Source: Thermovirgaceae bacterium
Lineage (GTDB): Bacteria; Synergistota; Synergistia; Synergistales; Thermovirgaceae
DNA length: 22,107 nucleotides
NCBI GenBank assembly: GCA_046542505.1
Contig: JBKHBH010000027.1
Span: forward strand, 1 to 22,107
Direction: 5' to 3'
The notes under the pieces are model-generated. The model was not told the DNA's origin and searched no databases. It was given only the letters and a program-made list of their open reading frames with translations. Shown here piece after piece: positions 1,997 through 21,931 of this stretch. The first letter of the stretch is position 1. Each line of letters opens with the position of its first letter. Position numbers and translations under genes: made by a program.

Positions 1997-2053
1997 CCCT
2001 TCAGCAACAGATCAGCCCTTCTTTCCCGGTGGGCCCGAATCGAGTCCACCTCT

Positions 2054-2965: not shown

Positions 2966-2974
2966 AAGCTTTTT

Positions 2975-3697: not shown

Positions 3698-3730
3698 GCA
3701 TGTCCCCCTTTCACCGGCTCTCGCGACAGG

Positions 3731-3760
3731 TTGTCCCCTTTCCTGAGGTTCCGGTATAAT
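3731..3760 (+). promoter_or_regulatory. Candidate sigma70 promoter (TTGTCC-N18-TATAAT) facing otsA
   Basis: Perfect -10 at 3755-3760 in the AT-rich divergent rpiA/otsA region. A second, palindromic ATTATAAT at 3763-3770 could act as a -10 on either strand. Confidence 0.35.
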
Positions 3761-4050
3761 AGATTATAATAGTTTTGTAATATTCCGATTCCGTTCCATT
3801 GCGGTGGAACCCTTTGAAATTCTACCAGAGTCCGGCAGGGAACGTTTACATATCATTGCTTTTCACCTCTCTTCTCAAATGCTGAAAGCGTTGGCCGGAA
3901 ACGTCATGGCACCGCATCAAGGTTACCCGCCGCATGGCACGGATCTTCCAGGTGTCGTTTCTTGTCCTCCTTTTCGCAAAGCTTTTGACTCTTTCTCTGC
4001 GATCTTCGCACACGAAACAGGCACCTCGACAATGAAAGGAGTGACTTCCT

Positions 4051-5604: not shown

Positions 5605-5618
5605 AGGGAGGAAAACCA

Positions 5619-6845
5619 ATGGCACAAGCGATAAACGTGACGAAAGGAATTCACTGGGTCGGAGTAAACGACCACCAGTCGGACCTCTTCGAGTCCCTAT
5701 GGCCTCTTCCCAGGGGAGTCACCTATAACAGCTACCTCATCGACGACGAGAAGACCGTACTGATAGACACGGTCAAAGCGCCCTTCCTGACGGACCTCAT
5801 CGACCGGATCAGGGAAGTCCTCGGGCCAGGCAGGAGCCTGGATTATCTGGTCATCAACCACATGGAACCCGATCACTCGGGAGCAGTGAAGATTCTCAAG
5901 ACGGTCTTTCCCGATCTGAAAATCATCGGCAATACCAAGACAAAGGACCTTCTGGAAAGCTTTTACACTCTCACTGATGACGTGATCGTCATGAAAGACG
6001 GAGAGACCCTCGACATCGGAAGCCGGAATCTCCAGTTCTTCATGATCCCCATGGTTCACTGGCCGGAAACCATGGTGACATGGGACGCATCCACAAAGAC
6101 ACTTTTCCCCTGCGATGCCTTCGGCGGTTTCGGGGCACTGGACGGCGGACTCTTCGACGACGAAGTGGACATGAACTTCTACGAAGGGGAGATTTTGCGG
6201 TACTTCTCCAACATTGTCGGTCGCTACAGCCCCCAGGTGCAAAAAGCGATCGGCAAACTCAAGGGACTGGGGGAAATACGCATCATCGCACCCTCTCACG
6301 GGCCGATACACAGGAAAAAACCCGGAAGGATCGTGGAGCTTTATGACCGCTGGAGCCGTCACGAGACGGAATGTGGTGCCGTCATCGTCTTCGGATCCAT
6401 GTACGGAAACACCCAGAAGGCCGCCGATGCCGTGGCACGGTCCCTGGCGGAAGAAGGCATCGAAAAGATGGTCTACCACGACATTTCCAGGAGCCACGTC
6501 TCCTTCATCGTCCGTGATATCTGGAGATACAAGGGACTTGTGCTGGCCGGCTGCACCTATAACACGACCCTCTTCCCTCCCATGACCGAACTTGTCGGCC
6601 ACCTGCTCAACAAGAAGATGAAAAACCGGTACCTTGGACTGGTGGGATCCTACAGCTGGAGCAAGGGAGCCCTCGCGGCCCTGCAGGATTTCGCCTCCAA
6701 AGGAGACTGGGAGATCATCGAACCCCAGGTGGAAGTCAAGTCCTCGCCCGGGCCTGAAGACTTCTCCGCCTGCGGACAGCTGGGGAAAAACCTCGCCGCA
6801 AAACTCAAAAGCTGCACCTATCTCGAAAAGTGTTCTCTGGACTAG
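5619..6845 (+). CDS. fprA: Class A flavodiiron protein (metallo-beta-lactamase + flavodoxin), O2/NO reductase
   Basis: TYNSYLI, HMEPDHSG, HWPE, CDAFG, PSHGP and flavodoxin SMYGNT. GGAGG SD, 14 nt after the otsA stop. Confidence 0.92.
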   Translation: MAQAINVTKGIHWVGVNDHQSDLFESLWPLPRGVTYNSYLIDDEKTVLIDTVKAPFLTDLIDRIREVLGPGRSLDYLVINHMEPDHSGAVKILKTVFPDLKIIGNTKTKDLLESFYTLTDDVIVMKDGETLDIGSRNLQFFMIPMVHWPETMVTWDASTKTLFPCDAFGGFGALDGGLFDDEVDMNFYEGEILRYFSNIVGRYSPQVQKAIGKLKGLGEIRIIAPSHGPIHRKKPGRIVELYDRWSRHETECGAVIVFGSMYGNTQKAADAVARSLAEEGIEKMVYHDISRSHVSFIVRDIWRYKGLVLAGCTYNTTLFPPMTELVGHLLNKKMKNRYLGLVGSYSWSKGALAALQDFASKGDWEIIEPQVEVKSSPGPEDFSACGQLGKNLAAKLKSCTYLEKCSLD

Positions 6846-6873
6846 GTCTCGACAATTTTGACAAGCAATTCGC

Positions 6874-6913
6874 AGAGCGTGTGATTTCCAAGGAAATCAC
6901 ACGCTCTTTTTTT
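6874..6913 (+). terminator. Intrinsic terminator after fprA, possibly also serving the convergent yjbQ
   Basis: Perfect 16-bp inverted repeat AGAGCGTGTGATTTCC-AA-GGAAATCACACGCTCT followed by a T run. Confidence 0.85.
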
Positions 6914-6917
6914 GCCT

Positions 6918-7316
6918 TCAGGCTTCATCCACACGCACAAAGACGTTCCTTGTCCTGGGGCCGTCGAACTCGCACAGGAAAATGCCCTGCCAGGTTCCGA
7001 GCAGGAACTTTCCCTCCTCAACCAGAAGTGCCAGATCCGGTCCGACGAGCGTTGCCTTGATGTGAGCCGCAGAGTTTCCCTCCGCATGACCGTAATTGTC
7101 CCCCCAGGGGACGAGCTTTTCCAGGGACATCAGGATGTCAGCTGCCACGTCCGGGTCTGCAGACTCGTTGACGGTAACGGCGGCTGTCGTGTGCGGAACG
7201 AAAATCCGGCAGACACCGAGGCGGACACCCGATTCCGACACGGCGAGAGCTATTTCACGCGTGATATCGACCATCTGTGACCTTGATTTCGTCGATATTT
7301 TCAGGGTCTTGTGCAT
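6918..7316 (-). CDS. yjbQ: YjbQ/UPF0047 family protein
   Basis: HTTAAVTVNE, EGNSAAHIKA and LGTWQGIFLCEFDG. AAGGAGG SD. Confidence 0.92.
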   Translation of the reverse strand: MHKTLKISTKSRSQMVDITREIALAVSESGVRLGVCRIFVPHTTAAVTVNESADPDVAADILMSLEKLVPWGDNYGHAEGNSAAHIKATLVGPDLALLVEEGKFLLGTWQGIFLCEFDGPRTRNVFVRVDEA

Positions 7317-7407
7317 GGATTCGCCTCCTTTCGCCAGGGTCTTGCTTTGACTTCCGTTTCAAGAAGTGTTAGGATTACCTAACTTATAGGATAAGGAGTC
7401 CTTTGCA

Positions 7408-8447
7408 ATGGGAAGCTTTTTCGCCTCAATCTTCCAGGGAGCCTGGTCGCATCGGCGCCGTTCATGCTCTTCGGATTTCTGGCATCGGGCCTTCTCAAAG
7501 TCTTTCTCCCCCGTGATTTCGTCAGAAAACACCTGGGTGAAAGAAAAGTCATGTCCATCTTCAAGGCTGCCCTTCTGGGCGTTCCATTGCCCCTGTGCAG
7601 CTGTTCCGTTCTCCCGGCGGCGGCGGAACTGAAGCGCCAGGGCGCCCGCAGGGGTGCCGTCGGAGCTTTCCTCGTCTCGACACCGGAAAGCGGTATCGAC
7701 TCCATAGCCGTAACCTGGGCCCTCCTTGACCCGATCATGACGGTCCTTCGGCCACTGGCGGCCTTCCTGACAGCGGCCGCGACGGGACTCGGAATCCTCG
7801 CCACGGAAAACGATGACCAGCTCCCGCCGGATCCGTGTCTCCCTGATGAAGCCTGTTCCTGTCACGATCACGAGCACCCGGTTGAGCCAAAGGCATCATT
7901 CGGTTCAAGAATCAGCGACGCCTTCCGGTACGGTTTTCTCGAACTCGTGGAAGACATCGGCCCGTGGTTTGCCGGAGGGGTTCTCCTGGCGGGCGTCCTT
8001 CAGACACTGCTGCCCGCCGATCTCATCCCGAAAACGCTCGGTACGGGCATGCTGTCGATACTGGCGACTCTGGCCGTTTCCGTCCCGCTTTACATCTGTG
8101 CCTCCGCCAGCACGCCTGTTGTCGCTTCCCTGGCCCTGAAGGGCCTTTCCCCGGGGGCGGCTCTGGTCTTCCTTCTTGCGGGGCCGGCCACGAACATCAC
8201 TTCCCTGACGGTGATTGCCGGGATCCTTGGCCGAAAGGCAGCAGCCATCTATCTTGCGACGATTGTTGTATTTTCGGTGTTTCTCGGACTTGCAGCAAAC
8301 TCTTTCTACGAAACATTGGGGCTTGACGCGTCAAGATGGCTTGCAGGCGGCACGAAGGAGTCACCCGGGCTGTTTTCCATTGCATGCGGGATTGTGCTCT
8401 CTGTCTTGCTCCTGCGGGCTGTGGCCCTTCGCTTTCTGTCGCGGTAG
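7408..8447 (+). pseudogene. DUF318/SO_0444-like permease (putative metal efflux), frameshifted near 7447-7449
   Basis: PLPLCSCSVLP, STPESG, YICASAS, LLAGPATN and a Cys/His-rich linker. The SD-supported ATG7408 (MGSFFASIFQGAWS) is out of frame with the main ORF (ASAPFMLFG..., 7464-8447). Confidence 0.65.
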
Positions 8448-8537
8448 CATGGCGTCTCCGGCGGTGGCGGCTTTACAGGCGCCCTGTCTTGCGAAACAAT
8501 TCCCGGGGAGACCCTCAATTCGGAGGAAGGGCCAATC

Positions 8538-9299
8538 ATGCCTGTCTGGCTGGTTTTTCACGGAGACCTCGTCGATCTGCTCAACAAGAACACGGATCCC
8601 GGGTCCGTCAGGGAACTGTTCCGGACGGCCCCCGTCAAGGACCTTGTGGAATCCCAGGGTATCCCCCATACCGAAGCAGGGAGCATCGTCACCGCGGAAG
8701 GAGGCGAAAAAGCCTTTGACTATACACCAGGGTCCGGTGAAACACTTCATGTTTACCCTCACAAGCCTCCCGTGGACGTTACGAAAGGTTCCCTTCTTTT
8801 CCCCCACCCCTTTGGAGAAATCCGTTTCATTGTCGACGTCAACGTCGGGCGTCTCGCAAAACTGCTCAGAATCGCCGGTTTCGACACCCTCTACAACCAG
8901 AAATGGGAGGACAGTGAAATAGCAGAAAAAGCCCGGGAGGAAGAGCGCATCCTCCTCACCAGGGACCGTGAACTTCTCAAGCGGAACGCCGTCATCCGGG
9001 GCCGACTGATCAGGTCACCGGACCCATGGGACCAATTCGGTGAAGTCGTCACCTTCTTCGGACTGCGAGAGAAAATCGACCTGTTCTCCCGATGCCCCAA
9101 ATGCAACGGGCCTTTAAAGACAGTGGACAAGGAGGAAATTATCGATCAACTCGAGCCTTTGACCCGCCTCATGTATGACACCTTTACACGATGCCCCGGG
9201 TGCGGCCAGATCTACTGGTGCGGGTCCCATCACTCCCGCATACGGGAAAAAATGGCCGCTTCGCTGTCAAGAGCCTGCCCTTCTAACGGGAGGCGCTGA
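8538..9299 (+). CDS. Mut7-C RNase domain protein with N-terminal ubiquitin-like domain and C-terminal Zn ribbon
   Basis: VKDLVESQGIPHTE, FIVDVNVGRLAKLLR, RILLTRD, SRCPKCN...CPGCGQIYWCGSH. GGAGG SD. Confidence 0.88.
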   Translation: MPVWLVFHGDLVDLLNKNTDPGSVRELFRTAPVKDLVESQGIPHTEAGSIVTAEGGEKAFDYTPGSGETLHVYPHKPPVDVTKGSLLFPHPFGEIRFIVDVNVGRLAKLLRIAGFDTLYNQKWEDSEIAEKAREEERILLTRDRELLKRNAVIRGRLIRSPDPWDQFGEVVTFFGLREKIDLFSRCPKCNGPLKTVDKEEIIDQLEPLTRLMYDTFTRCPGCGQIYWCGSHHSRIREKMAASLSRACPSNGRR

Positions 9300-10473
9300 C
9301 GCAGGCCCACTTCTCGAGGGTCTCGGCGATGCGTCGCGCTCCTTCGGCAAGCACTTCAGGCTCCCTTACGAGAGCGATCCGGACGAATCCCGTCCCTTTC
9401 GTCCCGAAGGACCGCCCAGGCGTCACCACAACTCCAGCCTCCTTGATGCAGAATTCGGCGAAGGCCATGTCATCGGTGCAGTCGGGCACCTTCGCCCAGA
9501 TGAACATGCTTCCCTGAGGGGGCGTAACGGTCCATCCCTTTTCCGCAGCCGTGTCGATAAAGGCGTCACGCCGCTTTTGGTACATGTCTCGCGTTTTGGC
9601 GATCATCCCGTCCCTGTCGGGATGGGTCAGAGCCCTTATCGCGGCTTTCTGGACGGGCCTGTACAGACCGTAATCGATATTGCTTTTGAGCCTCCGGAGA
9701 CCCTCGATAAAAACCTCGTTCCCCGCCACGAACCCGATCCGCATCCCCGCCATGTTGAAGGTCTTCGAGAAGGAATTCACTTCCACTGCCACGTCACGGG
9801 CGCCTTCGATCTCGAGGACGCTCGGGGGCCTGAACCCGTCGTAGGCAAGTTCGCAATAGGCATTGTCGTAGATGAGCCAGATATCATTCTCCCTGCAGAA
9901 ATTCACGGCCCTTTCCAGTACATACTTTTCGGCGCCGACACCTAACGGGTTGTTTGGATAATTCAATACCATGAGCCTCGCCTTTTTCGCCACGTCACCA
10001 GGAACGCCCGTGAAATCCGGGAGGAACCCCTTGTCCTCTTCCAGCGGCAGATGCCAAGATGTTCCGTCTACCACGGTCGGCATGTAATGGTAAATGGGAT
10101 AACCGGGATTAGGCAGAATGCAGAGGTCACCCTTTTCCATGGCCACCAGCGGGAAATGGGCGAATCCTTCCTGGGATCCCCACAGGGGGAGGATTTCCGT
10201 CTCGGGGCCAAGGGGCACTCCGAACCTTTCCCCGTACCATTTCGCTATGGCTACGGGAAGTTCCGGATCGATAAAGGGATATTCGTAGGAGCGGTCTTCT
10301 TGGGCCGCTTCAAGGACCGCCTCCAGAACGGGGCCTTCCGGCCGGCGGTTCGGGCTGCCGACACCGAGGTTGATGATCTTTTTGCCCGTCTTCCGGGCTT
10401 CTGCAATCCATCCCTGCAGGAGGCTGAAAATTCCTTCCTCCCCTTCACGCACACGGTTGGCAATGTATGGCAT
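9283..10473 (-). CDS. Class I/II PLP aminotransferase (LL-DAP aminotransferase/MtnE/AlaC-like)
   Basis: NLGVGSP, GSQEG, PGYPIY, LNYPNNP, DNAY, SFSKTFNMAGMRIG. AAGGAGG SD places the start at ATG10473 (MPYIA). Confidence 0.88.
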   Translation of the reverse strand: MPYIANRVREGEEGIFSLLQGWIAEARKTGKKIINLGVGSPNRRPEGPVLEAVLEAAQEDRSYEYPFIDPELPVAIAKWYGERFGVPLGPETEILPLWGSQEGFAHFPLVAMEKGDLCILPNPGYPIYHYMPTVVDGTSWHLPLEEDKGFLPDFTGVPGDVAKKARLMVLNYPNNPLGVGAEKYVLERAVNFCRENDIWLIYDNAYCELAYDGFRPPSVLEIEGARDVAVEVNSFSKTFNMAGMRIGFVAGNEVFIEGLRRLKSNIDYGLYRPVQKAAIRALTHPDRDGMIAKTRDMYQKRRDAFIDTAAEKGWTVTPPQGSMFIWAKVPDCTDDMAFAEFCIKEAGVVVTPGRSFGTKGTGFVRIALVREPEVLAEGARRIAETLEKWACVSASR

Positions 10474-10734
10474 CGCTTTTACTCCTCCTTTTGGAAATAC
10501 GCCGGCTGCATCGGTCAAGCACTCACTCAAAAACCTCTGTCGAAATTGTCACCACGATTTTTAGAGTAACACTCCTTTGGTCGCTGGAAAAGCAGGAGGA
10601 TCCTTTACATCCTTCCCATCGACCGTTTTCGGTTTTTTCGGAGCCTCCCCCGGGAAGTGAAGGTTTTCCTTTCACCGGTTGAAACCGCTCCCGGACTGGT
10701 TCCGTGACTCTCAGACCGCTATTATTCCAAAGCC

Positions 10735-10899
10735 TCAGGCAATGAAAGAAACCATGATTTTCGTGTCGCGGCAGAAATTGCTGGCGGTCTTGCGAAAGAG
10801 GCGCCCCAGGGTTTCGCGACTGACCGTCAGGTAAACCGCGGGCTGTTGGAGATCAGGTCCCGAACTGCATCTGCTCCCGTCGGGAAGCAGCGAGGGCAA
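10735..10899 (-). pseudogene. Possible Crp/Fnr-type HTH remnant
   Basis: Short frame reading LQQPAVYLTVSRETLGRLFRK resembles the Crp/Fnr HTH pattern (ELAxYLGVSRETLSR). Confidence 0.3.
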
Positions 10900-11052
10900 G
10901 TCTCAAAGAATCGAAAGGAGCAGCCAGGCAAAATGAAGGGAGGGTTCCCGGAGACACCTTGCCATCCTGGGCCCTCCCTTGAAGTAAAGACACACTTTCC
11001 CCACAGGACGATGTGTCGTCGATAGCCATGCGCTTTGCACTATGCGCGTGGT

Positions 11053-12045
11053 TCAGTCTGCCACATCTCTTTCGCTCAATATCTTTCTCAGCACGGGATA
11101 ATCGATGTTGCCTCCGGAAATGACAACACCCGTTTTCCTCCCCAGGGATTTCATCTTTCCCGAAAGGAGGGCACCAACACCGACAGCTCCGGCACCTTCG
11201 ACAACCTGGTGATGCTCGCGGTGCAGGAAGGCTATCGCGCTTTCTATATCCTCTTCGGTGATCTCGCACATGCCGCTCACCCTTTGCTTCGCGAGGGAAA
11301 GCACAGGCTGCGTAATCCCGCCGGAAAGACCGTCGGCAATCGTTTCCCCGTATTCCACTTTCTTTACTACGCCTTCCTTCCAGGAGGCGACCCACGGATT
11401 CGACGTTTCTGACTGTACCCCGTAGATCTGTGAATCGGGATTCAGGGCTTTCGCGGCAATGGCCACGCCGTTCAAAAGCCCTCCGCCACCGGCAGGTACA
11501 AGGACCAGGTCCAGATCGGGTTCATCAAGGAACATCTCTAAAGCCAGGGTCCCCTGCCCCGCGATGACGGCGGGATCCTCAAAGGATGAGACATAGGTTT
11601 TCCCCTTTTTTTCTGCGTACCGATGCGCAGCCTCTTCGGTATCGTCATAGTTTCCGTCCACGATGTGCAACTGGACAAAGCTGCCCCCACGCCGGTTGAT
11701 CGCTTCTTTTTTTGTTTCGGGACAATCCCTGGGGACAAAGATCTCGGCCACCACCCCAAGCTCACTCGCGGCGACCGCGACGCCCTGGGCATGATTGCCG
11801 CTGGAACAGGTGACAACCCCCCTGTTTCGCTCGTGTTCACTCAGGCAGTTCACTTTATAGAGAGCGCCGCGAACCTTGAAAGCGCCGCACATCTGCTGGT
11901 TTTCAAGCTTCAGGTAGACGGGGCCGCCGGCGATTTCACTCAGTTTGTCGGAATACAGTAAGGGCGTATGCCATACCTTGTTTCGAAGAAACCGGTACGC
12001 CCTGACCACGTCTTTTACCGTCGGGTTAAGAGCTTTCTCTCCCAT
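11053..12045 (-). CDS. Fold-type II PLP threonine/serine dehydratase or racemase family enzyme, without ACT domain
   Basis: TPL, LKLENQQMCGAFKVRGA, SSGNHAQG, GQGT, GGGGL, TIADGL, SGGN. GGGGGTG SD places the start at ATG12045. Confidence 0.88.
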   Translation of the reverse strand: MGEKALNPTVKDVVRAYRFLRNKVWHTPLLYSDKLSEIAGGPVYLKLENQQMCGAFKVRGALYKVNCLSEHERNRGVVTCSSGNHAQGVAVAASELGVVAEIFVPRDCPETKKEAINRRGGSFVQLHIVDGNYDDTEEAAHRYAEKKGKTYVSSFEDPAVIAGQGTLALEMFLDEPDLDLVLVPAGGGGLLNGVAIAAKALNPDSQIYGVQSETSNPWVASWKEGVVKKVEYGETIADGLSGGITQPVLSLAKQRVSGMCEITEEDIESAIAFLHREHHQVVEGAGAVGVGALLSGKMKSLGRKTGVVISGGNIDYPVLRKILSERDVAD

Positions 12046-12124
12046 TTCACACCCCCGTGTATGGTATGTGACCGGGTGCCGACCCCGGTGTTCGCTGCTG
12101 GTTTTTTCGCAGGACACCCCGTTT

Positions 12125-12338
12125 CTAGAACAGGTTCAGGATGTGCCCCTCGTCGTCCACGCCGATGGCCTCCGCAGCGGGCTTGGCAGCCCGGGCATGG
12201 TCATGATGGACCCTCAGATAGGCACGTTGAAACCGGCCCCCGTCGACGGAGGGATTCCCCGGATACCTCCACTTTCTTCGCAATCCCACCGATGGGCTCC
12301 ATCTTCGCTCTCTGCGCTATCTCGATGTCCGACAGCAT
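12125..12338 (-). pseudogene. fhs: Formate--tetrahydrofolate ligase relic with a large internal deletion
   Basis: N-terminus MLSDIEIAQRAKMEPI is joined out of frame to the C-terminus STGAGFNVPI*GSIMTMPGLP / KPAAEAIGVDDEGHILNLF*. Both ends match known Fhs termini. Confidence 0.9.
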
Positions 12339-12379
12339 AAATGAATCATCCCTTTCTGGCAATTTTTGGGAGAACTCTC

Positions 12380-12407
12380 TGGTTGCTAACGGCAACCATG
12401 TATTATA
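12380..12407 (-). promoter_or_regulatory. Candidate -10 box (TATAAT) with operator-like palindrome TGGTTGC-N5-GCAACCA upstream of the fhs relic
   Basis: TATAAT on the minus strand at 12402-12407 and a perfect 7-bp inverted repeat at 12380-12398. The -35 is poor. Confidence 0.45.
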
Positions 12408-12466
12408 TCCGGCGGTTCTCAGGCACAAAGGGCATGGTGCAAATATTGCCTGAAAATCCTGCACAC

Positions 12467-13465
12467 CTAGATTTTTACATCCAGAACATGCAGCCTGGAC
12501 TTTGAAAAAAGGATGGGAATCTCTTTCGGCTCCCGTTTTTCCCTGATGAAAACCCCGAGGTTGCCGCCGGATCGGCGTCTCTGGCCGAATGGGATGTATT
12601 GAACCTGCGACCCTTTGACGAGATCGAAACGTATCCAATCTCCCGACTCATCCTTGAAAAAACCTTTTGCCCTCACAACATCGGCGGGCAATTGTCCCAT
12701 AAGGCTGCGAAAATCCTCAGGGGTCCCTTCCCAGCAAATACATTGGGCAAGAAGCGCATCGGGAGGCGCAAGGTGAGCCTCCGGATCCTGCAATGCGGAA
12801 TCGATGTAGCTCTCTATGTCTTCCTCTGCAGGCACTTCACCTGGGTTTTCCCGGACGCCGGCGGAACTGCCCGATTTCAGCAAATCCCATGGGATCCTGC
12901 CGAAAGACGTTTCGTATATGCGCGCAGTGTCATTGAGGCCGGTGATTTCCAGCCGAAGTTTCTGCATCTTCCTTTTGTTCACAAGGTCTCGCTTGTTGAT
13001 GATGATCACAGTCGCTGTATGAGTCTGCCTGGAAACGGCGTTGAAGTGGTCCGCCCATTCGCTGAAATGCTCGGCATCGACTACACAAATGCTGTCGGCC
13101 AATGCGTAGAAGCGTCCGAGAGGACCTATGGAGAGATCCCGCTCAATATCACTGGTATCGGCTATGCCGCTCGCCTCAATCAGAAGGATCGACGGTTTCC
13201 ACTCGCGCGCAATGGAGTAAAGCCCTCTCATGAAATCACCCTTGGCGCACGCGCAAAAAATCGACCCCTGGTTGATTTCAAGTATCTCGAGACCTTCCCT
13301 GTAAGAGATTTCTCCATCCACGCCAATCCGGCCGAACTCGTTCATCAGGACGCCAAGGGTTTCGTCTTCCGGACGGGTTTCCAGAAGGTGGAGCAACATC
13401 GTTGTTTTGCCGCTGCCCAAAAATCCCGAAATCAAAAAAACCCTGCATTTGCCTGAACTGGCCAT
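12467..13465 (-). CDS. CobW/COG0523 family metallochaperone GTPase
   Basis: GFLGSGKTT, NEFG, GSIFCAC, IEASG, NKRD and a C-terminal VVRAKG. The start at ATG13465 avoids overlap with the upstream gene and has an SD. Confidence 0.88.
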   Translation of the reverse strand: MASSGKCRVFLISGFLGSGKTTMLLHLLETRPEDETLGVLMNEFGRIGVDGEISYREGLEILEINQGSIFCACAKGDFMRGLYSIAREWKPSILLIEASGIADTSDIERDLSIGPLGRFYALADSICVVDAEHFSEWADHFNAVSRQTHTATVIIINKRDLVNKRKMQKLRLEITGLNDTARIYETSFGRIPWDLLKSGSSAGVRENPGEVPAEEDIESYIDSALQDPEAHLAPPDALLAQCICWEGTPEDFRSLMGQLPADVVRAKGFFKDESGDWIRFDLVKGSQVQYIPFGQRRRSGGNLGVFIREKREPKEIPILFSKSRLHVLDVKI

Positions 13466-13521
13466 TCCCCCCTGTCCTCCTTTTCGCGAGACGGCTCCGG
13501 GAACAATCATTTCCTGCCCGT

Positions 13522-15123
13522 TCAAAAGAGCATGGCTTTCATGAAACGTTTTTGAAAATCCCTCAATGTCGACAGTTCGATGTAACGCATCTTCCGGGCC
13601 ACTGAATGCGTCGTCTCCCAAAACGGAGCCGAGGCAAGGGCCGCAACTGCACCACGGCCGGCGGCGTTGCGGACACCGCGGATTTTACTCAGGGGAACGG
13701 GAGGCAAAAGACCTACCCTGACGGCGCTTTCCTGATCGATATAGTTGCCGAAGGCCCCTGCGAGCAGCACCTCGTCGACGTCATCAAGAGCTAGGTCCGC
13801 ACGTTCGAGAAGCACTTCGATTCCCACCTTGACTGCACCCAGGGCAAGCTGGACCTCACGGACATCCTTCTGTGTGATGTAAACCGGCTTTTCGCCCTCT
13901 GCCAAAAGGATGCGGAGAATCCCATCGGGTCCCCGGTCCATGCGTTCGCGAATCCAGGGATCATCACATTCTTCGGGATAGACCATTCTCCCCTTCCGGT
14001 CGACGATGCCGTCCTCGAGAAGCACGGCCACCGCGTCAACCAGCCCGGAACCGCAAATCCCTCTGGCTGGTGCATCTTCAATGGTCTCGACGACCAGGCG
14101 GTCCTCGTCCCGGTAGACTTTCTCGATCGCGCCCGCGGCGGCTCTCATGCCGGATCCTATGCGGGCCCCTTCAAAGGCCGGTCCGGCAGCGGTGGCACAG
14201 CAGTATATCGCTTCACTGGAGCCCAATACGATTTCATTGTTTGTCCCCGTATCTACAAAAAGACGAACAGCCGCAGAGTCGGCGATCCCTGTCACGGAAA
14301 CACCGGAAACGATATCGGCGCCCACATACCCGGCCACGTTCGGCAGAAACTTGATTTGTCCTTCCGGGTGGATTTTCATTCCAAAAGGAGCTGCTGCCTG
14401 AGGAGGTAGAGAGAGGAAATTCGGCTTGTAGGGGCTGACACCAATACTTTCGGGGGAAACACCTGCGAGAAGATGTTCCATCACGGTGTTTCCCACGATA
14501 GCCACCTGGTATATATCCTGGACACCCAGTCCGTTTCGCGAGGCCATTTCCTCCAACCGCTGGTTCATCCCCTCAACCAGCACTTTCTGCAACCGCCGCA
14601 GGCCATCTTCCGAAGACGCAAAGGAAATTCTTGAAATGACGTCGTCCCCGTAGGTGATTTGAGGATTCAAGAACGAAATGCTATCGATGAGATGGTATCG
14701 TTCAAGGTCCAGAAGATAGGCGACAACAGTGGTTGTGCCAATGTCAAAGGCAGCTCCGTAACCCTTCGAGTCGGGTTCCCAAAAAAGCTCTTCCTCGGAA
14801 ATTTTGGAGAGAATCTTTGAACTTTTCCCGTCGACTTCGTCCAGAACGAGTATTTCCCCGTCTCCGGAAATCCTGGCCATGCAGGCAAGGCGTATTCCCT
14901 CGTTGAGCACTTCTTCTCCCAGAACCTTCTTTTCCGTCTCGGCAGGAGGTCCGACACATCTTCTGGCCTTGACGCGGCACTTTCCGCAAATTCCGGACCC
15001 GCCGCAAGGGCGGGCTATCTGGACTCCCCCTCTTGCAGCCGCTTCATGGACTGTCTCACCACCTTGCGCATCGACGGTGATGCCTGAAGGTTTGAAGGTG
15101 ATTTTGAAGGATTTTTCGCTCAT
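13522..15123 (-). CDS. ASKHA-family reductive activator of corrinoid proteins (RACo/RamA-like) with N-terminal [2Fe-2S] domain
   Basis: CGGSGICGKC...RLAC, DIGTTT, DTGTNNE, AAGPAFEG, GICGSGL, LAGAFG. Confidence 0.92.
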   Translation of the reverse strand: MSEKSFKITFKPSGITVDAQGGETVHEAAARGGVQIARPCGGSGICGKCRVKARRCVGPPAETEKKVLGEEVLNEGIRLACMARISGDGEILVLDEVDGKSSKILSKISEEELFWEPDSKGYGAAFDIGTTTVVAYLLDLERYHLIDSISFLNPQITYGDDVISRISFASSEDGLRRLQKVLVEGMNQRLEEMASRNGLGVQDIYQVAIVGNTVMEHLLAGVSPESIGVSPYKPNFLSLPPQAAAPFGMKIHPEGQIKFLPNVAGYVGADIVSGVSVTGIADSAAVRLFVDTGTNNEIVLGSSEAIYCCATAAGPAFEGARIGSGMRAAAGAIEKVYRDEDRLVVETIEDAPARGICGSGLVDAVAVLLEDGIVDRKGRMVYPEECDDPWIRERMDRGPDGILRILLAEGEKPVYITQKDVREVQLALGAVKVGIEVLLERADLALDDVDEVLLAGAFGNYIDQESAVRVGLLPPVPLSKIRGVRNAAGRGAVAALASAPFWETTHSVARKMRYIELSTLRDFQKRFMKAMLF

Positions 15124-15145
15124 CGACGTCCCTTCCTTAATGTTC

Positions 15146-15187
15146 CACCCCGCCGCAGGGTTTTTGTTGTTTTCCCCGGGCGGGGTG
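15146..15187. other. Intergenic stem-loop between the MT2 and activator genes
   Basis: 9-bp perfect arms CACCCCGCC / GGCGGGGTG with extra imperfect inner pairing. Confidence 0.55.
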
Positions 15188-15204
15188 AATGACTTTCTCG
15201 AGCT

Positions 15205-16584
15205 TTACTCGAGCCTTTTGTCTATTTCTTTCATCAGTTCTTCCGGAGTCGGGACGATATTGTCAAAGACCACTTCGTTGTTTATGAGCATCGTGGGGAG
15301 TGTAGACACACCCAGAGCCTTGGTCCGCATGATGCCTGCCGCGCTTTTGATGAGGGACTCGCGCCATGCGAGTTTGTCGCCATAATGAGGCGCAACCTCG
15401 GCGACGGCCTCACACATGTACTGACAGGGCGCACACCCCTCGGAATCGAGAGTGACGATCTCCACGAACACCTTGCCAGGTTCGATTTCCACATCTTCCA
15501 GCACATCGCCCGACTCTTGTGCATGAGCCAGGGCATCTTCAAGGGAAAGAAATCCCTGGGTTTCCGACGGCTCTTCTCCCATCGTTGCATAACGTCCCAC
15601 AGCTTCGAGATTGTACACGGGAGTGTCGAAGGGAAGGTCGCAGCCCGGAGAAAGAATGTAGCCTTTCCTGCCGCCCGTCTCAATGCGATGCCGGGCATCC
15701 TCCACGCATTCTTTGGGCGAACCGAAGAGCAAAGTAGTTGTCAAGGGGATGTTTCCTTCAAAGGCGACCTTGTACTTGTGGGCAAGGTCTTTGACGAAAT
15801 TCAGATCTACCTGTTCGTCAAAAGCGATAGCATGGGGCTTCGACTGCATCATCAATTCGATGTTCTTCGTAGCGTTGCCGCAGCAGAAAAGGGTCACAAT
15901 GCCACCCTTGTTGTTGACTTCATCTATCACAGGTTTGACGTAAGGAGTCACGAAGGTCTCGAAATGCCTGGGGGAAATCTGGCTTGTCATGGGGTCGACA
16001 ACTGCCACCACGTGAGCACCCGTTTCCATGTACCATTCGCCCATGCGCCGCGTAATCTCTGAACAGAATTCGAGCACTTCCTTGGCTTCTTCGGGCTTTT
16101 TCACCATGTCCATAATAAAGGCCGACCCCCTGAGATGGAGGGCCAGTGTGAAAGGACCGCAGCAAAGACCGAAAACAGCCGTTTCATCCCCGATCTCCTT
16201 TACGAGGCGCCTCGTTGCCTCAAACATCAGGGGAAGACGACCACCCTCTTTGGTAAATTCCGGAAGATCCGTGACTGATTTTGATTTGTCGGCCAGAACA
16301 TGACCGACAACAGACGGAGGATTGTTTTTTGCCCAGCGAAGTTCGCAGCCCAAAACCTCCGCTTCGACCTGAAGATCAAAAGTAGAGCAAACGCCATCGG
16401 CGCAATAGCGTTCTGCAGCCTTTTCCACACCCTCGACAAGTACTTCGGGATCCCTGAGCAGCGTTGCTGCATCGGTGTCCACCAGCCTTGCAACATGCAC
16501 TCCCGTAAAGGGCACCCAGGGCACCCTGTCTACATCCTGAAATTGAAGGGCGCGAAGCACTCTCTCTTTTCCCGTCATCATCAT
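15205..16584 (-). CDS. UroD/MtbA/MtaA-family methylcorrinoid methyltransferase (MT2) fused to a C-terminal thioredoxin-like CxxC domain
   Basis: MTGKERV..AL, DLQVEAEVLGC, GPFTLA, VDPMTSQISP, GNIP, ILSPGCDLP. The C-terminal part reads VEIVTLDSEGCAPCQYM...LGVSTLPTMLIN. Confidence 0.85.
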   Translation of the reverse strand: MMMTGKERVLRALQFQDVDRVPWVPFTGVHVARLVDTDAATLLRDPEVLVEGVEKAAERYCADGVCSTFDLQVEAEVLGCELRWAKNNPPSVVGHVLADKSKSVTDLPEFTKEGGRLPLMFEATRRLVKEIGDETAVFGLCCGPFTLALHLRGSAFIMDMVKKPEEAKEVLEFCSEITRRMGEWYMETGAHVVAVVDPMTSQISPRHFETFVTPYVKPVIDEVNNKGGIVTLFCCGNATKNIELMMQSKPHAIAFDEQVDLNFVKDLAHKYKVAFEGNIPLTTTLLFGSPKECVEDARHRIETGGRKGYILSPGCDLPFDTPVYNLEAVGRYATMGEEPSETQGFLSLEDALAHAQESGDVLEDVEIEPGKVFVEIVTLDSEGCAPCQYMCEAVAEVAPHYGDKLAWRESLIKSAAGIMRTKALGVSTLPTMLINNEVVFDNIVPTPEELMKEIDKRLE

Positions 16585-16683: not shown

Positions 16684-18075
16684 CTAATAGGGAAATTCGA
16701 CTCCCATCTTGTTGAGTTCCTCTTTCATGCGATAGTACTGATCAAGATATTCCTGGCGTGGGATCAAGCGTTCCATATCGTAGACGTCCTGGATCGTTTT
16801 TCCGTAATTGTCTGTGGGGATAAGGGACTCATATTTTTCCATGATCTTCTGGCACACTTCTTCAGCCTTGGCCCTGTCGAGACGCATCTTGAAGGAAGCT
16901 TCGGAACACTCGTGGTAGAACCGTGATTCAAGCGGCGTCGCGTGGTCGGTGTACTTGTTGCGGCAAGTTGCGGCACCCCAGGGGTTACCTCCGGAACTCT
17001 CCGTCGCGAGGGCGTGGTTGGCGCATTCCCAGTAAAGTTGATCTGTTCCGGGACCCGCATTTGCGAAGAGGTTGTTGAGGTAGATGAGGTTGGAGTTTCT
17101 GGACATGGCCTGGCTCAACATGCTCTGGATCCAGAGAAGCGCCCTGGTCGTCGTCGACTGCCATTTGAGGTGGAAGGGGAAGTTGAGCGCCCAGTTTGAA
17201 CCGTAGAGGCAGGCCCCCTGGATGTTGTAGGCCGTCTGGAGAACCGCCGTTGCCTCGGTGCCACCCGCGTGGCCGCCGAAAATCGCGCCGCAGAGGTTCC
17301 CGAAAACATTGCCGTAGGAGCGGTAATGAAGCGACTTGTTCAGCATTGCGTCGTTGGTCGTCATCTCCGTGAGAATGGAAACCATGCGTCCGTCAAGATG
17401 GGACTGGCGCACACCCCAGGCCGGGTTTGCCGCAGCTATCTGGGCCTGGTCGGTCTCGGCGGTTCCAACGGAAACGGTCCAGACGTCGGGTTTTCCGACA
17501 AGGCGCTGTGCGTCCCTGAGATTCATGGCATGTTCCATGGCCGCCGCCACTTCGGTGGGGCTCTGCGATGTAGCCTTGCGGCCCATAAAATCCTCGATCA
17601 AGGGTGCGCAGAGACCGTCAAGCATCGGCTCTTTCAGATAGGCCATGCAGGCTTTCTTGTGAATATCGGTGCTGAAGTTCGCATCTGGGCTGAAAAGATG
17701 GAAGGGGCGTTTCTCCTTGTCTTCCACGGACCGAACCTGCAGCCAGCGCTGGTCGTGGCCTGCACCGACCATGTAACTCGGTTGTTTCGTGTAAAGCACT
17801 TCATCAACCTCGGACTCGGTGAATTTCATCACCCTGTGATGGTCGGCGTGATAGACACCAACGGAGATGAAGAAATCTTTTGCAGCCGCCCAGAGCCTGT
17901 CGGCAAGGTCATCGTCGCAGTTAACGATCGTTTTGCCGTCCCACTTGATGTCGTGCTCCTTGACGACCCTTCTCATTTCGGGAATGAATGACTTCATCAT
18001 CCATTCATTCTGATTCCTGTAAAACGGTCCATCTTCTACCTTGGAGAAGACCTCCCACATTCTAAACGTAGACAT
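16684..18075 (-). CDS. mtmB: MtmB-family (monomethylamine:corrinoid methyltransferase-like) protein lacking pyrrolysine
   Basis: 463 aa with MtmB-like segments VNCDDDLADRLW.AA, RVMKFTESEV, SPTE, GKP, GG.AGG.E, AGPGT, TPLESRF and YD...L.P.QEY. No internal TAG. Adjacent to the corrinoid protein gene. Confidence 0.85.
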   Translation of the reverse strand: MSTFRMWEVFSKVEDGPFYRNQNEWMMKSFIPEMRRVVKEHDIKWDGKTIVNCDDDLADRLWAAAKDFFISVGVYHADHHRVMKFTESEVDEVLYTKQPSYMVGAGHDQRWLQVRSVEDKEKRPFHLFSPDANFSTDIHKKACMAYLKEPMLDGLCAPLIEDFMGRKATSQSPTEVAAAMEHAMNLRDAQRLVGKPDVWTVSVGTAETDQAQIAAANPAWGVRQSHLDGRMVSILTEMTTNDAMLNKSLHYRSYGNVFGNLCGAIFGGHAGGTEATAVLQTAYNIQGACLYGSNWALNFPFHLKWQSTTTRALLWIQSMLSQAMSRNSNLIYLNNLFANAGPGTDQLYWECANHALATESSGGNPWGAATCRNKYTDHATPLESRFYHECSEASFKMRLDRAKAEEVCQKIMEKYESLIPTDNYGKTIQDVYDMERLIPRQEYLDQYYRMKEELNKMGVEFPY

Positions 18076-18140: not shown

Positions 18141-18773
18141 CTAGCGGTTCAGAGCAGCCTTCAGCTTGTCGACGAATTCGAAGGCGTCAAAAGACCAGAT
18201 ATCGGCACCTATTCTTTCGGACCATTCCGGTGATGTCGGGGCTCCACCGATGCAAACAAGGTATTTGTCCTTCTCCCCTGCCTCGGCGAGAAGTTTGATG
18301 AACTCTTCCTGATTCGGCATAGTCGTCGTCATCAGGGCCGAAAGGCCGACGGCCTCGGCGTTGTTCTTTTTTGCCTGCTCCATGTATTCAACGGGATCCA
18401 CGTCGACGCCCAGGTCGACGACATTGAATCCGTGTGCCTGAAGCATGATCCCGACGATATTCTTTCCTATTTCATGGTAGTCACCCTTGACGGTTCCGAT
18501 GACGACCGTTGCCGGGACCTTGTCAGTCTCCCTTGCGACAAGATGCTCCTTGAGGACATCCATGATCTGCATGAAGGTATCTCCCGCAACCATGAGGTCC
18601 GGAAGGAACACCTCGAAGTTCTCGAACTTCTCACCCAGTATTGCCATTTCTTCCGTCAAGCCGTCCATGATCTCATGGGGATCCGTTCCTTTATCGATCA
18701 TTTCCTGGACAAGTGAGCTGGCGCTTTCCCCTTCCCCTTCGATCAGGTACTGACGAACTTTTTCAATAGACAT
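18141..18773 (-). CDS. Cognate corrinoid protein (MtmC/MttC-like)
   Basis: Cap-domain motif FLPDL, B12-binding GDYHEIGKNIV (DxHxxG), SALMTTT, IGGAP. AAGGAGG SD places the start at ATG18773. Confidence 0.93.
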   Translation of the reverse strand: MSIEKVRQYLIEGEGESASSLVQEMIDKGTDPHEIMDGLTEEMAILGEKFENFEVFLPDLMVAGDTFMQIMDVLKEHLVARETDKVPATVVIGTVKGDYHEIGKNIVGIMLQAHGFNVVDLGVDVDPVEYMEQAKKNNAEAVGLSALMTTTMPNQEEFIKLLAEAGEKDKYLVCIGGAPTSPEWSERIGADIWSFDAFEFVDKLKAALNR

Positions 18774-18973: not shown

Positions 18974-21931
18974 TCACTGGACCCAGCCCACCCGACTGCG
19001 CAGTTCGTCCACCTTTTTTCTGTAATACGCTTCATTCTGTCCCAATACGGCTGAAGCAAAATCGTCGGGGATGGATGTTTTGAGACTGGAGAGTTCCGCC
19101 TTCGCCCAGTAATATATGGCCAGCCAGGTCGGGCGTTTCGCCTGTGCCACCAGCCGTTCCGTCACTTCGAAATATTCTCGGCTTTTGGCCCAATCTTCCT
19201 CAAGACCTGTGATGAGCCCCAGAAGACTGAAGGCTATGCCGCCGCCCTGAAGCCCTCCGTCCTGTTCCGAGTTCCGCTGGAAATAAAAAGCTTCGAGACG
19301 GCGGAGCATCATCTTGGCTTCATCGTATCGTTCAAGAAGACAGAGAGAATAACCGGCCTTTGCCAGGGAAAGGCCCATGCCCCGGTGAATGCCCAGCGAT
19401 TCACCCATCTGGACGCAGTTTTCGTAAAAGGCCAGAGCTCCTTCCGTGTCGCCCTGCGTCAGGTGGAGGTCCCCTCGAAAATGTTCCGCAGCGATAAGGG
19501 GCAAGGTGTATCCGGGCCCCTGTTCCTCCAGTTTTTCAAATATTTTTGTCGACATCCGGAGCAGTTTCGATGCCTCATCGGGCCGATCTTCCATGATCCG
19601 GGCGATGGCAAGAAACCGGAGAGCCGTTCCCAGGGGAACGTATAGCCTGTGGCCGAGGGCAAGACGATACATTTCACGAGCAAAAGGAAAGAGCCTGGCC
19701 ACATCGTCTGTCTGTATGGCCAGGTAGCAGAGCTGTCGAAGGACATCCACCTGCTCTGCGGCACTTGCTTTTCTGGCCCGCCGATATGCCTCGGTAAGTG
19801 TTTCAAGGGCTTCCTCATATTGCCCGTTCCACCAGAGGTGCGCTCCTTCCAGGACGAGGAGCTCGCGTTCAAGGGCATTGTATTCCGGTGTGTGTCCGAG
19901 CCTGCGGATCTGCTTGTCGAGAAGCGAACGCACCTCTGATATTGAATATTCAGTGAAGTCCGTGTCTTCAGCCATGGGAACATGGAGTTCCAGCTCCTGA
20001 TCCGTCAACGAAGGAAAAACTTCATGGGAAGCCTTGAAATGAACCTTCAATTCCCTGATACGCCAGTAGATCTCTTTATAGTAAAGTCCTCCCCTGCGAC
20101 AGAGGTCTGCTATTCTGGCGAAAGTGAGGCGGTTTTCTTCGCCTTCAGGGCAAAGATTCTCGAGGACTTCAACGGCCTTTTCGGTCAACGCCGCCCGTCT
20201 GGTGAACTGCATCCGTTCCAGCAGAGCCTCTCTGATCTTGGGGTGGGAGAAATAATAGAGGACGTCACCGTCATCAGAAGGGTGCTCCCGCACAAGCCCC
20301 TGCAATTCGACCTGTTCGAGCCTGGTTGAGACGTCAATTTTCGAGAGGCCGAGAAGGCCCGTCACCTGGGAGAGTGTCGCCGGTTCCGGAAAGACAGCGA
20401 GACCTTCGAGGAAGAGCCTGTCTTCACCGTCCAGCATTTCGATCCTGGCCTCGAAAAGATTGGATGTAAGGGCTGATCCGGGCTCATTCCCGACACCCGC
20501 TTCAGGCTCATCCTCTGAAGGAATCAGCAGTTGCTTGATGAAATACGGGGTCCCCTGGGTCTGGCTGTAGACTTCAGCGACACGCTGCTCATTCCAGACC
20601 AGATCGGGACGAAGGTGCCTGCAGATCTGTCCTGTTTGCTCAAGGTTGAATCTTTTGAGATGGATTTCCAGTGTTTCGATCGGCTCTCCCGAGATTTCCG
20701 TCCGCAGCATAAAGGTCGATCGCACTTCCTGGTAGCCGGAAATCAGAAGTTTTCGGGAAAAGGATTCGTTCCAGATGATGGATTCGAGAATCATCCAGGA
20801 GGCCTTGTCCATCCACTGGATGTTTTCGACCACGAGGATCCGCTGATCCTCCGGGCCCCTGGAGGCAAGATGCTCGAGGATACGTTCCGCCACCCGGAAG
20901 TATGTCAGTTCCGTGGGAGTGACCTTTTCACTTTCCTGGGGAATCCCGCAGCCGAGTCTCCGCAGCAGATGCAAAAACGGGGCCATTGGGCGTTCCATCT
21001 CTTCCTGGTAGCACCTGACTCTCAGACAGGTCCAGCCGTCATTTCCCAACCGGCTTGCGACCTCTTCGACAAGGGTTCCCTTGCCTATTCCCTCTTCGCC
21101 CCAGACAAAACCACAGAGCGACTGGTTTGAGTCCTTTGCACAGCTGAAAAAATCCAGAAGCCGGAGGACTTCGGTATTTCTCAAAAGGGGGTTGTCTTCG
21201 GCGAGCCTTTTCCTGATTTCCGACCCCTTGACCCGACGGCGTGATCCCTCGGCGGACAGGACCTCCTCCAGACCGGACTGAACTCCAAGGTCTTCTTCGA
21301 CTCGCCGCGAGAAGTCACGTGCCACGCGGACAGCATCGATCTTTCGGTCCGCCTTGATGTAAAGGTGGGCAAGCTCACCGTGAATATCCTCATCATAAGG
21401 CTCAAGGTCCGCCAGTTTTTCGAAACACCTGACAGCATCCCGGAACCCCCTGTCGTCTCCCTGGTTTCGCATGAAGCCAGCCCGTTTTTTGATCCCTTCG
21501 GCGAGCATCTTGCGATACCTGCCGCGGCGGTCATGGAGCCATTCGTTGAAAACGGGCCAATCATCAAGTTCGGGCAGGTCCAGGTAGGGTTTGCAAAGAG
21601 ATTCGAGGTCTTCCCAGGAGAGGATCTCCACCTCTCGCAAAAGATCCAGGTCTTTCGCGATCTTTACGTTCGGGTCCAGGCCGATGGATCTTCCACGGGA
21701 AATGAAAACGGGCGCAAGGTTGCGGATTGCGCTGAGGGCATTGCTGAGGTTCCGTCGTCCCGCCTCGGTCGTCTTGTCCCCCCAGAGAAGGGAACTGATG
21801 CGATCACGGTGCATGGTCCCTTCCTCGACCAGCATAAGGGCAAGTATACGAGCCTTCAGAAAGGGAAAGGATATTTCTTCCTGGTCCGCAAAAAAAGCGG
21901 GAGAACCCAGAAACCTCGCCATATATCTCAT
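18974..21931 (-). CDS. Large SARP/AfsR-like transcriptional regulator (wHTH + BTAD + STAND-type ATPase + TPR-like region)
   Basis: RDRISSLLWGD...RRNLSNAL, LEPYDEDIH, Walker A GEEGIGKG, Walker B ILVVENIQWMD, YYFSHPKIRE and helical C-terminal repeats. Confidence 0.85.
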   Translation of the reverse strand: MRYMARFLGSPAFFADQEEISFPFLKARILALMLVEEGTMHRDRISSLLWGDKTTEAGRRNLSNALSAIRNLAPVFISRGRSIGLDPNVKIAKDLDLLREVEILSWEDLESLCKPYLDLPELDDWPVFNEWLHDRRGRYRKMLAEGIKKRAGFMRNQGDDRGFRDAVRCFEKLADLEPYDEDIHGELAHLYIKADRKIDAVRVARDFSRRVEEDLGVQSGLEEVLSAEGSRRRVKGSEIRKRLAEDNPLLRNTEVLRLLDFFSCAKDSNQSLCGFVWGEEGIGKGTLVEEVASRLGNDGWTCLRVRCYQEEMERPMAPFLHLLRRLGCGIPQESEKVTPTELTYFRVAERILEHLASRGPEDQRILVVENIQWMDKASWMILESIIWNESFSRKLLISGYQEVRSTFMLRTEISGEPIETLEIHLKRFNLEQTGQICRHLRPDLVWNEQRVAEVYSQTQGTPYFIKQLLIPSEDEPEAGVGNEPGSALTSNLFEARIEMLDGEDRLFLEGLAVFPEPATLSQVTGLLGLSKIDVSTRLEQVELQGLVREHPSDDGDVLYYFSHPKIREALLERMQFTRRAALTEKAVEVLENLCPEGEENRLTFARIADLCRRGGLYYKEIYWRIRELKVHFKASHEVFPSLTDQELELHVPMAEDTDFTEYSISEVRSLLDKQIRRLGHTPEYNALERELLVLEGAHLWWNGQYEEALETLTEAYRRARKASAAEQVDVLRQLCYLAIQTDDVARLFPFAREMYRLALGHRLYVPLGTALRFLAIARIMEDRPDEASKLLRMSTKIFEKLEEQGPGYTLPLIAAEHFRGDLHLTQGDTEGALAFYENCVQMGESLGIHRGMGLSLAKAGYSLCLLERYDEAKMMLRRLEAFYFQRNSEQDGGLQGGGIAFSLLGLITGLEEDWAKSREYFEVTERLVAQAKRPTWLAIYYWAKAELSSLKTSIPDDFASAVLGQNEAYYRKKVDELRSRVGWVQ

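Follow-up and report, generated by a model that had tools for sequence, protein, structure and literature searches.

A pyrrolysine-free MtmB-family methyltransferase in a Thermovirgaceae genome, with a histidine-derived compound as candidate substrate

We analyzed a 22,107-nt stretch of DNA from a Thermovirgaceae bacterium of the phylum Synergistota (contig JBKHBH010000027.1 of assembly GCA_046542505.1, positions 1 to 22,107), hereafter the window, and in particular a gene that encodes a homologue of the methylamine methyltransferase MtmB without pyrrolysine (Pyl). The gene lies in a minus-strand run that encodes, in order, a regulator, a corrinoid protein, the MtmB-like protein, a URO-D/thioredoxin fusion, a RACo-type activator, a CobW-family GTPase, and the stub of a formate-tetrahydrofolate ligase gene (Table 1). 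In our comparison set, L, G, and P codes denote loci, genomes, and proteins; the query genome, G000, is 93.5% complete.

Table 1. Coordinates of the module in the window
Feature	Position	Strand	Basis
5' stub of formate-tetrahydrofolate ligase (fhs) gene	12250..12338	-	blastn to L004/L005; translation
CobW/P47K-family GTPase, probable metallochaperone	12467..13465	-	PF02492; 75% to L004 island copy
RACo/RamA-type ATP-dependent reductive activator of corrinoid protein	13522..15123	-	PF14574, PF17651, PF00111
MtaA/CmuA-like (URO-D fold) methyltransferase II with C-terminal thioredoxin-like domain (CAPC)	15205..16584	-	PF01208; PF13192 weak
Pyrrolysine-free MtmB-family methyltransferase I (substrate:corrinoid), 463 aa	16684..18075	-	PF05369, PDB 1L2Q/1NTH, model
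Val201 codon GTT, pyrrolysine-202 column	17473..17475	-	Alignment
Corrinoid (B12-binding) protein, 210 aa, MtbC/MtmC-like, directly upstream	18141..18773	-	PF02310 and PF02607
Large AAA-ATPase/BTAD/TPR transcriptional regulator	18974..21931	-	Domain matches; travels with module

The MtmB-like protein and its pyrrolysine column

An earlier interpretation made from the DNA letters (the sequence-only reading) had described the gene as an uninterrupted 463-codon frame without an in-frame TAG, had taken TAG as a plain stop for this gene and the corrinoid gene, and had placed Val201 at the position of Pyl202 of Methanosarcina barkeri MtmB. All of this was borne out. The frame has no internal stop, and both it and the corrinoid gene upstream end in TAG, which is an ordinary stop in G000 because it ends 307 of the 1444 long open frames (at least 900 nt). 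The protein matched the MtmB family PF05369 from residue 6 to residue 458 (E = 2e-76; 258 bits against a cut-off of 25), and phmmer aligned it with M. barkeri MtmB (1L2Q/1NTH; E = 6e-49) with Val201 opposite residue X202 and no gap. As a control, the in-frame TAG codons of two Synergistota mtmB genes (at loci L039 and L040) fell in the same alignment column. An AlphaFold model (pLDDT 96.5, built on a 101-sequence alignment) showed the MtmB TIM-barrel fold and superposed on 1TV2/1L2Q with a TM score of 0.93 and an rmsd of 1.7. Family, fold, and operon identify the protein as methyltransferase I, the component that confers substrate specificity in a corrinoid demethylation system; its gene is the single MtmB-family copy in G000.

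Among 119 aligned rows of the surrounding clade (at least 38% identity, some redundant loci included), the Val201 column holds Val in 101, Ile in 8, Lys in 8, Leu in 1, and Gln in 1, and none of the 119 has an in-frame stop. The check for Pyl machinery that the sequence-only reading had proposed came out in agreement with its view: a PylB profile found no match in G000, a PylS model gave only weak matches far below its cut-off, and ARAGORN found no tRNA with a CTA anticodon (pylC and pylD were outside this search).

The system resembles MtmB/MtmC of M. barkeri (1L2Q, 1NTH, and 1TV2; PF05369) in family and fold over its full length, in the adjacent corrinoid gene upstream, and in an operon that also encodes a reductive activator and an MtaA/MtbA-like methyltransferase II. 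It differs in its bacterial host, in that searches found no pylS, pylB, or tRNA-CUA, in the amino acid antiporter and racemase found with its relatives, and in sequence (24% structural identity). Besides Pyl202, four residues of M. barkeri MtmB which we take to surround the Pyl ring and bind the amine (Hao et al. 2002) have been replaced, E229 by M231, E259 by L261, Q333 by N335, and Y335 by F337, in the alignment; the Synergistota Pyl-MtmBs retain E, E, Q, and Y in these columns. Monomethylamine is probably not the substrate of the MtmB-like protein.

An MtmB without Pyl is by itself ordinary. The query was matched at an E value of ≤0.001 by 717 representative proteins (50% clustering), and an ordinary residue occupies the Pyl region in each of the 174 aligned full-length database proteins. 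MtqB of Methanococcoides methylutens Q3c acts as a demethylase on tetramethylammonium and choline and shows weak activity with monomethylamine (PMC13044021). Because MtqB also has Val in the aligned column, Val at the Pyl site is not diagnostic, and with Pyl-free MtmBs so numerous we dropped it as a mark of novelty. EmtA is described as sharing ~30% identity with MtmB and having no Pyl codons (10.1101/714501), and AbeA and EmtA, both steroid C-methyltransferases, cluster with MtmB (PMC11912376). In Formimonas warabiya, dichloromethane (DCM) induces a non-Pyl MtmB (PMC9768040); the Formimonas homologue in our set, P0031, may be the DCM-induced Ga0180325_111810, for which the supplements gave no match. 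The sequence-only reading had stated that no substrate of a non-Pyl MtmB was characterized, and the descriptions of MtqB (tetramethylammonium and choline) and of EmtA and AbeA (steroids) contradict it. Its proposal of a non-Pyl MtmB with a different substrate, of an uncharacterized type, keeps its first part, a Pyl-free family member in which four pocket residues of MtmB are replaced, and loses the premise that no such substrate was known.

True Pyl MtmB genes occur in two Synergistota genomes, at L039:6065-12290 (G213:C77) and L040:6696-12907 (G217:C7), and have an in-frame TAG at codon 203. Nearby are genes for a corrinoid protein and a permease of the ammonium transporter family, with pylS, pylB, pylC, and pylD over cut-off. 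G213 holds both a true Pyl MtmB and a Pyl-free member of the query clade.

A separate clade with a conserved pocket

The encoded protein belongs to the MtmB family and is neither a pyrrolysine MtmB nor an MtqB. In our tree, the query clade had a support of 1.0 with a Lys-bearing side branch included. Named members are found in Synergistes jonesii (86% identity), Cloacibacillus, Formimonas (P0031; 48-49%), Dehalobacterium, Thermoleophilia, and Aminicenantes; within Synergistota, 34 of 268 genomes have an MtmB-family match, 30 of them at an identity of at least 47%. In a published tree of 1,061 MtmBs, function is unknown outside the Pyl and MtqB clades (PMC13044021), and the query clade may be among the unlabeled sequences of that tree. 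The side branch (L114, L116-L120, and L126; P0043-P0047, 39-42% identical to the query) has Lys in the Pyl column.

For MtqB we used P0426, a 459-aa protein whose mass of 49382.1 matches the table in PMC13044021 and which is 78% identical to the strain AM1 protein. Like the query, MtqB is a non-Pyl MtmB homologue paired with a corrinoid protein (MtqC), but it is only 24-27% identical to the query, and the tree distance between them is 3.6, compared to 1.3 between the query and the Formimonas homologue. MtqB has C233, C261, C263, C298, and Y335 (query numbering) where the query has S, L, G, N, and N, and it lacks D131, H182, R230, N373, and K374 of the query. Membership of the query in the MtqB clade was rejected on the separate branch, the low identity, and the absence of the Cys/Met/aromatic pocket of MtqB.

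Fourteen residues (D131, C156, H182, M184, G204, Q212, R230, L261, F299, N335, F337, W366, N373, and K374) are kept in 113 to 119 of the 119 clade rows but occur in just 0-23% of the 128 family members that are more distant. The pocket, assigned from alignments and DSSP strands rather than from model distances, is rich in aromatic and sulfur residues. It looks like a single conserved specificity, hydrophobic in the space of the Pyl arm and with new charged residues that would fit an amino acid.

Two other groups of enzymes invite comparison. EmtAB of Denitratisoma and AbeABC of Phosphitispora TUW77 are likewise MtmB-related bacterial corrinoid methyltransferases; according to their published descriptions they act on a steroid carbon, however, and no steroid genes were seen among the scanned neighbors of the query. 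The non-Pyl MttB enzymes (MtgB, MtpB, MtcB, and MtyB) follow the same logic, loss of Pyl with a changed methyl donor, but they belong to another family (Foldseek TM ~0.5; 11-13% identity) and rely on betaines as donors and on a folate methyltransferase II. L047 (G224:C17) has, at ~938-16226, a distant (22-24%) Pyl-free MtmB grouped with xanthine-dehydrogenase-like genes, a YgeY-type hydrolase, and a xanthine permease, a setting which hints that its clade demethylates methylpurines.

The module and its relatives

The corrinoid gene has an ATG preceded by AGGAGG, and its product scored 175 bits on TIGR02370, under the cut-off of 215. The URO-D/thioredoxin fusion scored 189 bits on TIGR01463, also below cut-off, and matched MtaA (4AY7) at E = 2.5e-24. 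In it, Phe replaces the Zn-site His of MtaA and both Cys residues are retained (Phe-Cys-Cys for His-x-Cys); this changed motif and the CAPC motif are invariant across all aligned fused forms. The family is large, with 3,584 matches at an E value of ≤1e-60 among 8,000 candidates, Spirochaetes included. Type 1 mlp clusters (PMC10418091) are similar in having URO-D enzymes like the coenzyme M methyltransferases, a RACo-type activase, and no tetrahydrofolate methyltransferase, and the mlp-like content of the query module, compared by gene content only, is the corrinoid protein, RACo, and one or two URO-D enzymes. Those clusters are defined by Mlp2 and Mlp3, however, whereas the core of the query module is an MtmB-family methyltransferase I, and its URO-D enzyme has a thioredoxin domain and an altered Zn motif.

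Judged against close relatives, the fhs stub is a deletion scar, with the NhaC antiporter, a molybdenum/tungsten (Mo/W) enzyme, and most of a second fhs gene now gone. The junction is not an assembly artifact, since G260 shares it at 78% DNA identity, and because the deletion removed the antiporter, the module in the window has no dedicated importer. Relatives are more complete. We compared 28 distinct Synergistota carrier loci (the group at 60% identity or more, with 3 duplicates dropped), many of them ended by contig edges. All 28 have the corrinoid gene and 25 have a URO-D enzyme; RACo and an NhaC/ArcD-like antiporter are each found in 23, and the regulator and a MetH-activation-domain-like protein (a tentative annotation) each in 21. 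Less frequent are a class III pyridoxal phosphate (PLP) enzyme (13 loci), an M20 amidohydrolase (7), and the Mo/W enzyme (5). The antiporter scored 340-400 bits on the model of the arginine/ornithine antiporter ArcD, whose cut-off is 650. The top PDB matches of the class III PLP enzyme are a broad-specificity amino acid racemase and an isoleucine 2-epimerase, and 12 of the 14 members of its cluster retain the aligned Asp; the best PDB match of the Mo/W enzyme is acetylene hydratase. Records of Cloacibacillus porcorum and C. evryensis contain the partner methyltransferase at 79% identity. Promoter and terminator scans were near chance, with 6 hits against 3.1±1.7 and 11 against 8.9±3.1 expected from shuffled sequence.

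Several further observations concern the neighborhood. Past the fhs stub on the same strand are a threonine/serine-dehydratase-like PLP gene (window 11053-12048), which also adjoins the remnant in G260 and elsewhere lies outside the conserved module, and an LL-diaminopimelate-aminotransferase-like PLP gene (window 9283-10473). A 128-aa open reading frame on the plus strand (window 1610-1996) has no Pfam match. In L035:5716-16670 (G239:C11), two MtmB-like paralogues (85% and 68% identical to the query), each paired with a separate corrinoid gene, form one cluster; after the second come genes for an AbgT transporter, an M20 hydrolase, and an alanine/glycine symporter. The Mo/W enzymes at L004:16623-18665 and L103:7317-9428 are stand-alone proteins, likened by eye to the N-terminal module of the ergothioneine synthase MES.

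Substrate and fate of the methyl group

The gene context, which the sequence-only reading overlooked, narrows the substrate to an amino acid and, probably, to a histidine derivative. The NhaC/ArcD-like antiporter and the PLP racemase of the relatives point to a free α-amino acid rather than a betaine. The link to histidine comes from hut genes. Of 232 metagenome loci from the wider clade we took the best 80, and 7 of these have them: HutH in L049, L064, and L100, HutU and HutI in L061 and L064, and FtcD in L061, and HutP lies just upstream of the corrinoid-MtmB pair in L049, L057, L058, and L062. The hut-linked loci span four sub-clades, with MtmB-like proteins 52-65% identical between sub-clades and 42-50% identical to the query; by chance, ~0.5 hut loci would be expected in 80 (two hut loci per 3.5 Mb and a mean flank of 6.9 kb; a rough estimate made with no matched control). 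The query genus has an island with a second HutH that is 90-96% identical among G000, G262, and G263 and 66-68% identical to the core copy. This HutH retains the equivalent of His83 of HAL and scores over the hutH cut-off. The complete genome G259 has neither the island nor the second HutH, and L004 has a second fhs as well. In G000, the second hutH is on contig C42, beside a MetH-activation-like gene and a second URO-D enzyme. The host is an amino-acid-fermenting bacterium.

We consider it likely that the methyl donor is some histidine-derived compound. Within that class, the best reading, which we hold tentatively and at somewhat under even confidence, would be anaerobic demethylation of ring-N-methylhistidine to fermentable histidine. 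A ring methyl is favored because the antiporter and racemase imply a free α-amine, no BCCT gene is present in the 80 metagenome loci, and no MttB match was found in G000. A literature search whose coverage excludes most subscription papers found no corrinoid methylhistidine demethylase. Methylhistidines are common products of the turnover of animal and fungal proteins and dipeptides and serve as clinical markers; in this scheme they would come from anserine, actin and myosin, and ovothiol.

In the proposed route, the antiporter of the relatives would import the amino acid and the racemase would interconvert its D and L forms. The MtmB-like protein would take the ring N-methyl group from N-π- or N-τ-methylhistidine, or a close imidazole derivative, with the hydrophobic V201, W199, F128, M231, and L261 possibly filling the space of the Pyl arm and the clade-invariant polar D131, C156, H182, R230, N373, and K374 predicted to bind and protonate the substrate. 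The methyl group would move to Co(I) of the adjacent corrinoid protein, whose oxidized Co(II) form RACo would re-reduce, an established function of that family, and the freed histidine could be fermented via HutH/HutU and formate-tetrahydrofolate ligase, for which genes are present and the coupling is presumed. The MtaA-like methyltransferase II would pass the methyl group to a thiol, probably homocysteine or sulfide.

A thiol acceptor is the simplest reading of the methyl sink, and we favor it over tetrahydrofolate because the folate route was not found in G000: profile searches gave no match for MetF, the MetH homocysteine (Hcy) domain, MetE, ACS, or a folate methyltransferase (MeTr), and that route was rejected for this genome. 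The sole pterin-binding protein of G000 is FolP, next to FolK; in the 30 carriers, pterin-binding matches over cut-off are FolP-like or lie in MetH-sized frames, with one weak exception, as judged by score and frame length. G000 has AdoHcy hydrolase and HutU, a MetY-like gene scored below cut-off, and LuxS was absent from all seven genomes tested. Similar methyl sinks have been proposed for other folate-less URO-D clusters (PMC10418091). In G213, the place of the URO-D enzyme after corrinoid-MtmB-NhaC is taken by a homocysteine S-methyltransferase domain that stands alone.

Several observations weigh against the methylhistidine reading. C42 does not overlap the window, so the adjacency of hutH and the module in G000 is inferred from synteny in L004/L005. 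No hut gene is present in 73 of the 80 metagenome loci, many of them short, and among 38 Synergistota regions searched HutH was seen only in L004 and L005, which are from one genus. Co-occurrence at the genome level was discarded as support, since 182 of the 268 genomes of the phylum have HutH and its presence therefore says little. As neighbors, hut genes are outnumbered by non-Pyl MttB genes (16 of 80) and by the Mo/W enzyme (9 of 80), both of which fit a hercynine-like donor. The closest solved relatives of the racemase act on non-polar amino acids. In L064 the HutH carries Cys in place of His83, and in L061 the HutU is divergent. The Hcy methyltransferase domain is present in 26 of the 30 carriers and MetF in 23; because most carriers have these, the missing folate route is special to the query genus, where none of three genomes has either, and to G266; G000 itself is 93.5% complete, which limits its negatives.

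Among the alternatives, another methylated free amino acid (S-methylmethionine, an N-ε-methyllysine, a methylarginine, or N-methylproline) is unlikely to be the donor but deserves most attention, the hut genes then being incidental in amino acid fermenters. It would suit the modest ArcD score of the antiporter, a racemase similar to broad-specificity and Leu/Met racemases, the aromatic- and sulfur-rich pocket, a proline racemase at one locus (L019), and the stand-alone Hcy S-methyltransferases that four genomes of a single genus encode at a distance of 4-23 kb from it. It would leave the recurrence of hut genes in four sub-clades and the island-linked HutH unexplained, and the Pfam-scanned neighbors (68 and 91, with short and shadowed open reading frames excluded) include no gene for lysine fermentation, arginine deiminase, or proline/glycine reductase. 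Rather unlikely, too, is an N-α-methylated histidine, namely hercynine or its di- and monomethyl products derived from ergothioneine or ovothiols. The Mo/W enzyme would remove the sulfur and MttB paralogues the first methyl groups, with the MtmB-like protein taking the last, or all three. Both kinds of partner gene occur together in L052, L094, L103, and L108, acetylene hydratase belongs to the family of the N-terminal module of MES (PMC9516567), a likeness to our Mo/W enzyme judged by eye rather than computed, and the MtqB fold accepts quaternary amines (PMC13044021). G000, however, has no MttB match and has lost the Mo/W gene, which is found in only 5 of the 28 Synergistota loci, and the transporter is of the amino acid antiporter type, not BCCT.

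The remaining alternatives are less probable. In one, which we consider improbable, modified Hut enzymes degrade methylhistidine with its methyl group kept, and the MtmB-like protein demethylates a downstream product such as N-methylated formiminoglutamate or glutamate. The divergent HutH and HutU beside the gene in L064 and L061, where the methyl may indeed be kept through the Hut steps, fit this, as does a HAL acting on N-τ-methylhistidine that is cited in PMC11432326; the HutH of the query-genus island, which keeps His83 and exceeds its cut-off, does not. A small amine, whether monomethylamine used without Pyl or tetramethylammonium and choline as in MtqB, is highly improbable. MtqB, with Val in the Pyl column, does use tetramethylammonium (QMA), choline, and a little monomethylamine (PMC13044021), but the query is in another clade with most pocket columns different, the acidic residues of Pyl-MtmB are absent, and the true Pyl-MtmB loci in Synergistota encode a permease of the ammonium transporter family alongside pyl genes, where the query module has an amino acid antiporter. 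We give least credence to a reversed direction, in which the corrinoid would receive a methyl group from a methylthiol through the URO-D enzymes and the MtmB-like protein would then transfer it to an acceptor, much as EmtA methylates estradiol. EmtA is a Pyl-free relative of MtmB that works as a methylating enzyme (10.1101/714501), demethylation of methyl-S/Se compounds has been proposed for Mlp enzymes of the URO-D family (PMC10418091), and no folate sink was found in G000, yet the gene is usually accompanied by an importer, a racemase, catabolic HutH/Fhs, and HutP, and the partner in G213 is a homocysteine methyltransferase domain.

The outcome is a specific substrate proposal for a separate Pyl-free MtmB clade with its own conserved pocket and Synergistota module. 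With more reserve than for ring-N-methylhistidine as the donor, we suggest that the clade could be a widespread oxygen-independent methylhistidine demethylase of gut and sediment anaerobes, the substrate ring taking the place of the pyrrolysine ring, and that in this genus the methyl group would pass via the URO-D/thioredoxin fusion to homocysteine or sulfide. If true, this would add a third substrate class for Pyl-free MtmB enzymes, would put to the test whether substrates of this kind imitate the pyrrolysine-amine adduct, and would give the query genus a folate-independent methionine synthase or a source of methanethiol. The proposal is open to testing in cultured species that have parts of the module, S. 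jonesii (86%, the MtmB-like protein, orthologue WP_279009820.1) and C. porcorum and C. evryensis (79%, the partner).

Two observations stand beside this proposal. At L064:1989-5474 and L061:3-3368, two divergent enzymes may serve a modified histidine, namely the HAL in which Cys occupies the His83 position and a urocanase whose substrate-site motifs are altered and which scores under the thiourocanate-hydratase cut-offs. In G213, the operon L135:4126-9757 (G213:C14) encodes a corrinoid protein, a Pyl-free MtmB (47%), NhaC, the Hcy S-methyltransferase domain, and a PLP enzyme of the D-cysteine-desulfhydrase family, and it is a candidate for folate-independent methionine synthesis from an imported methyl donor.

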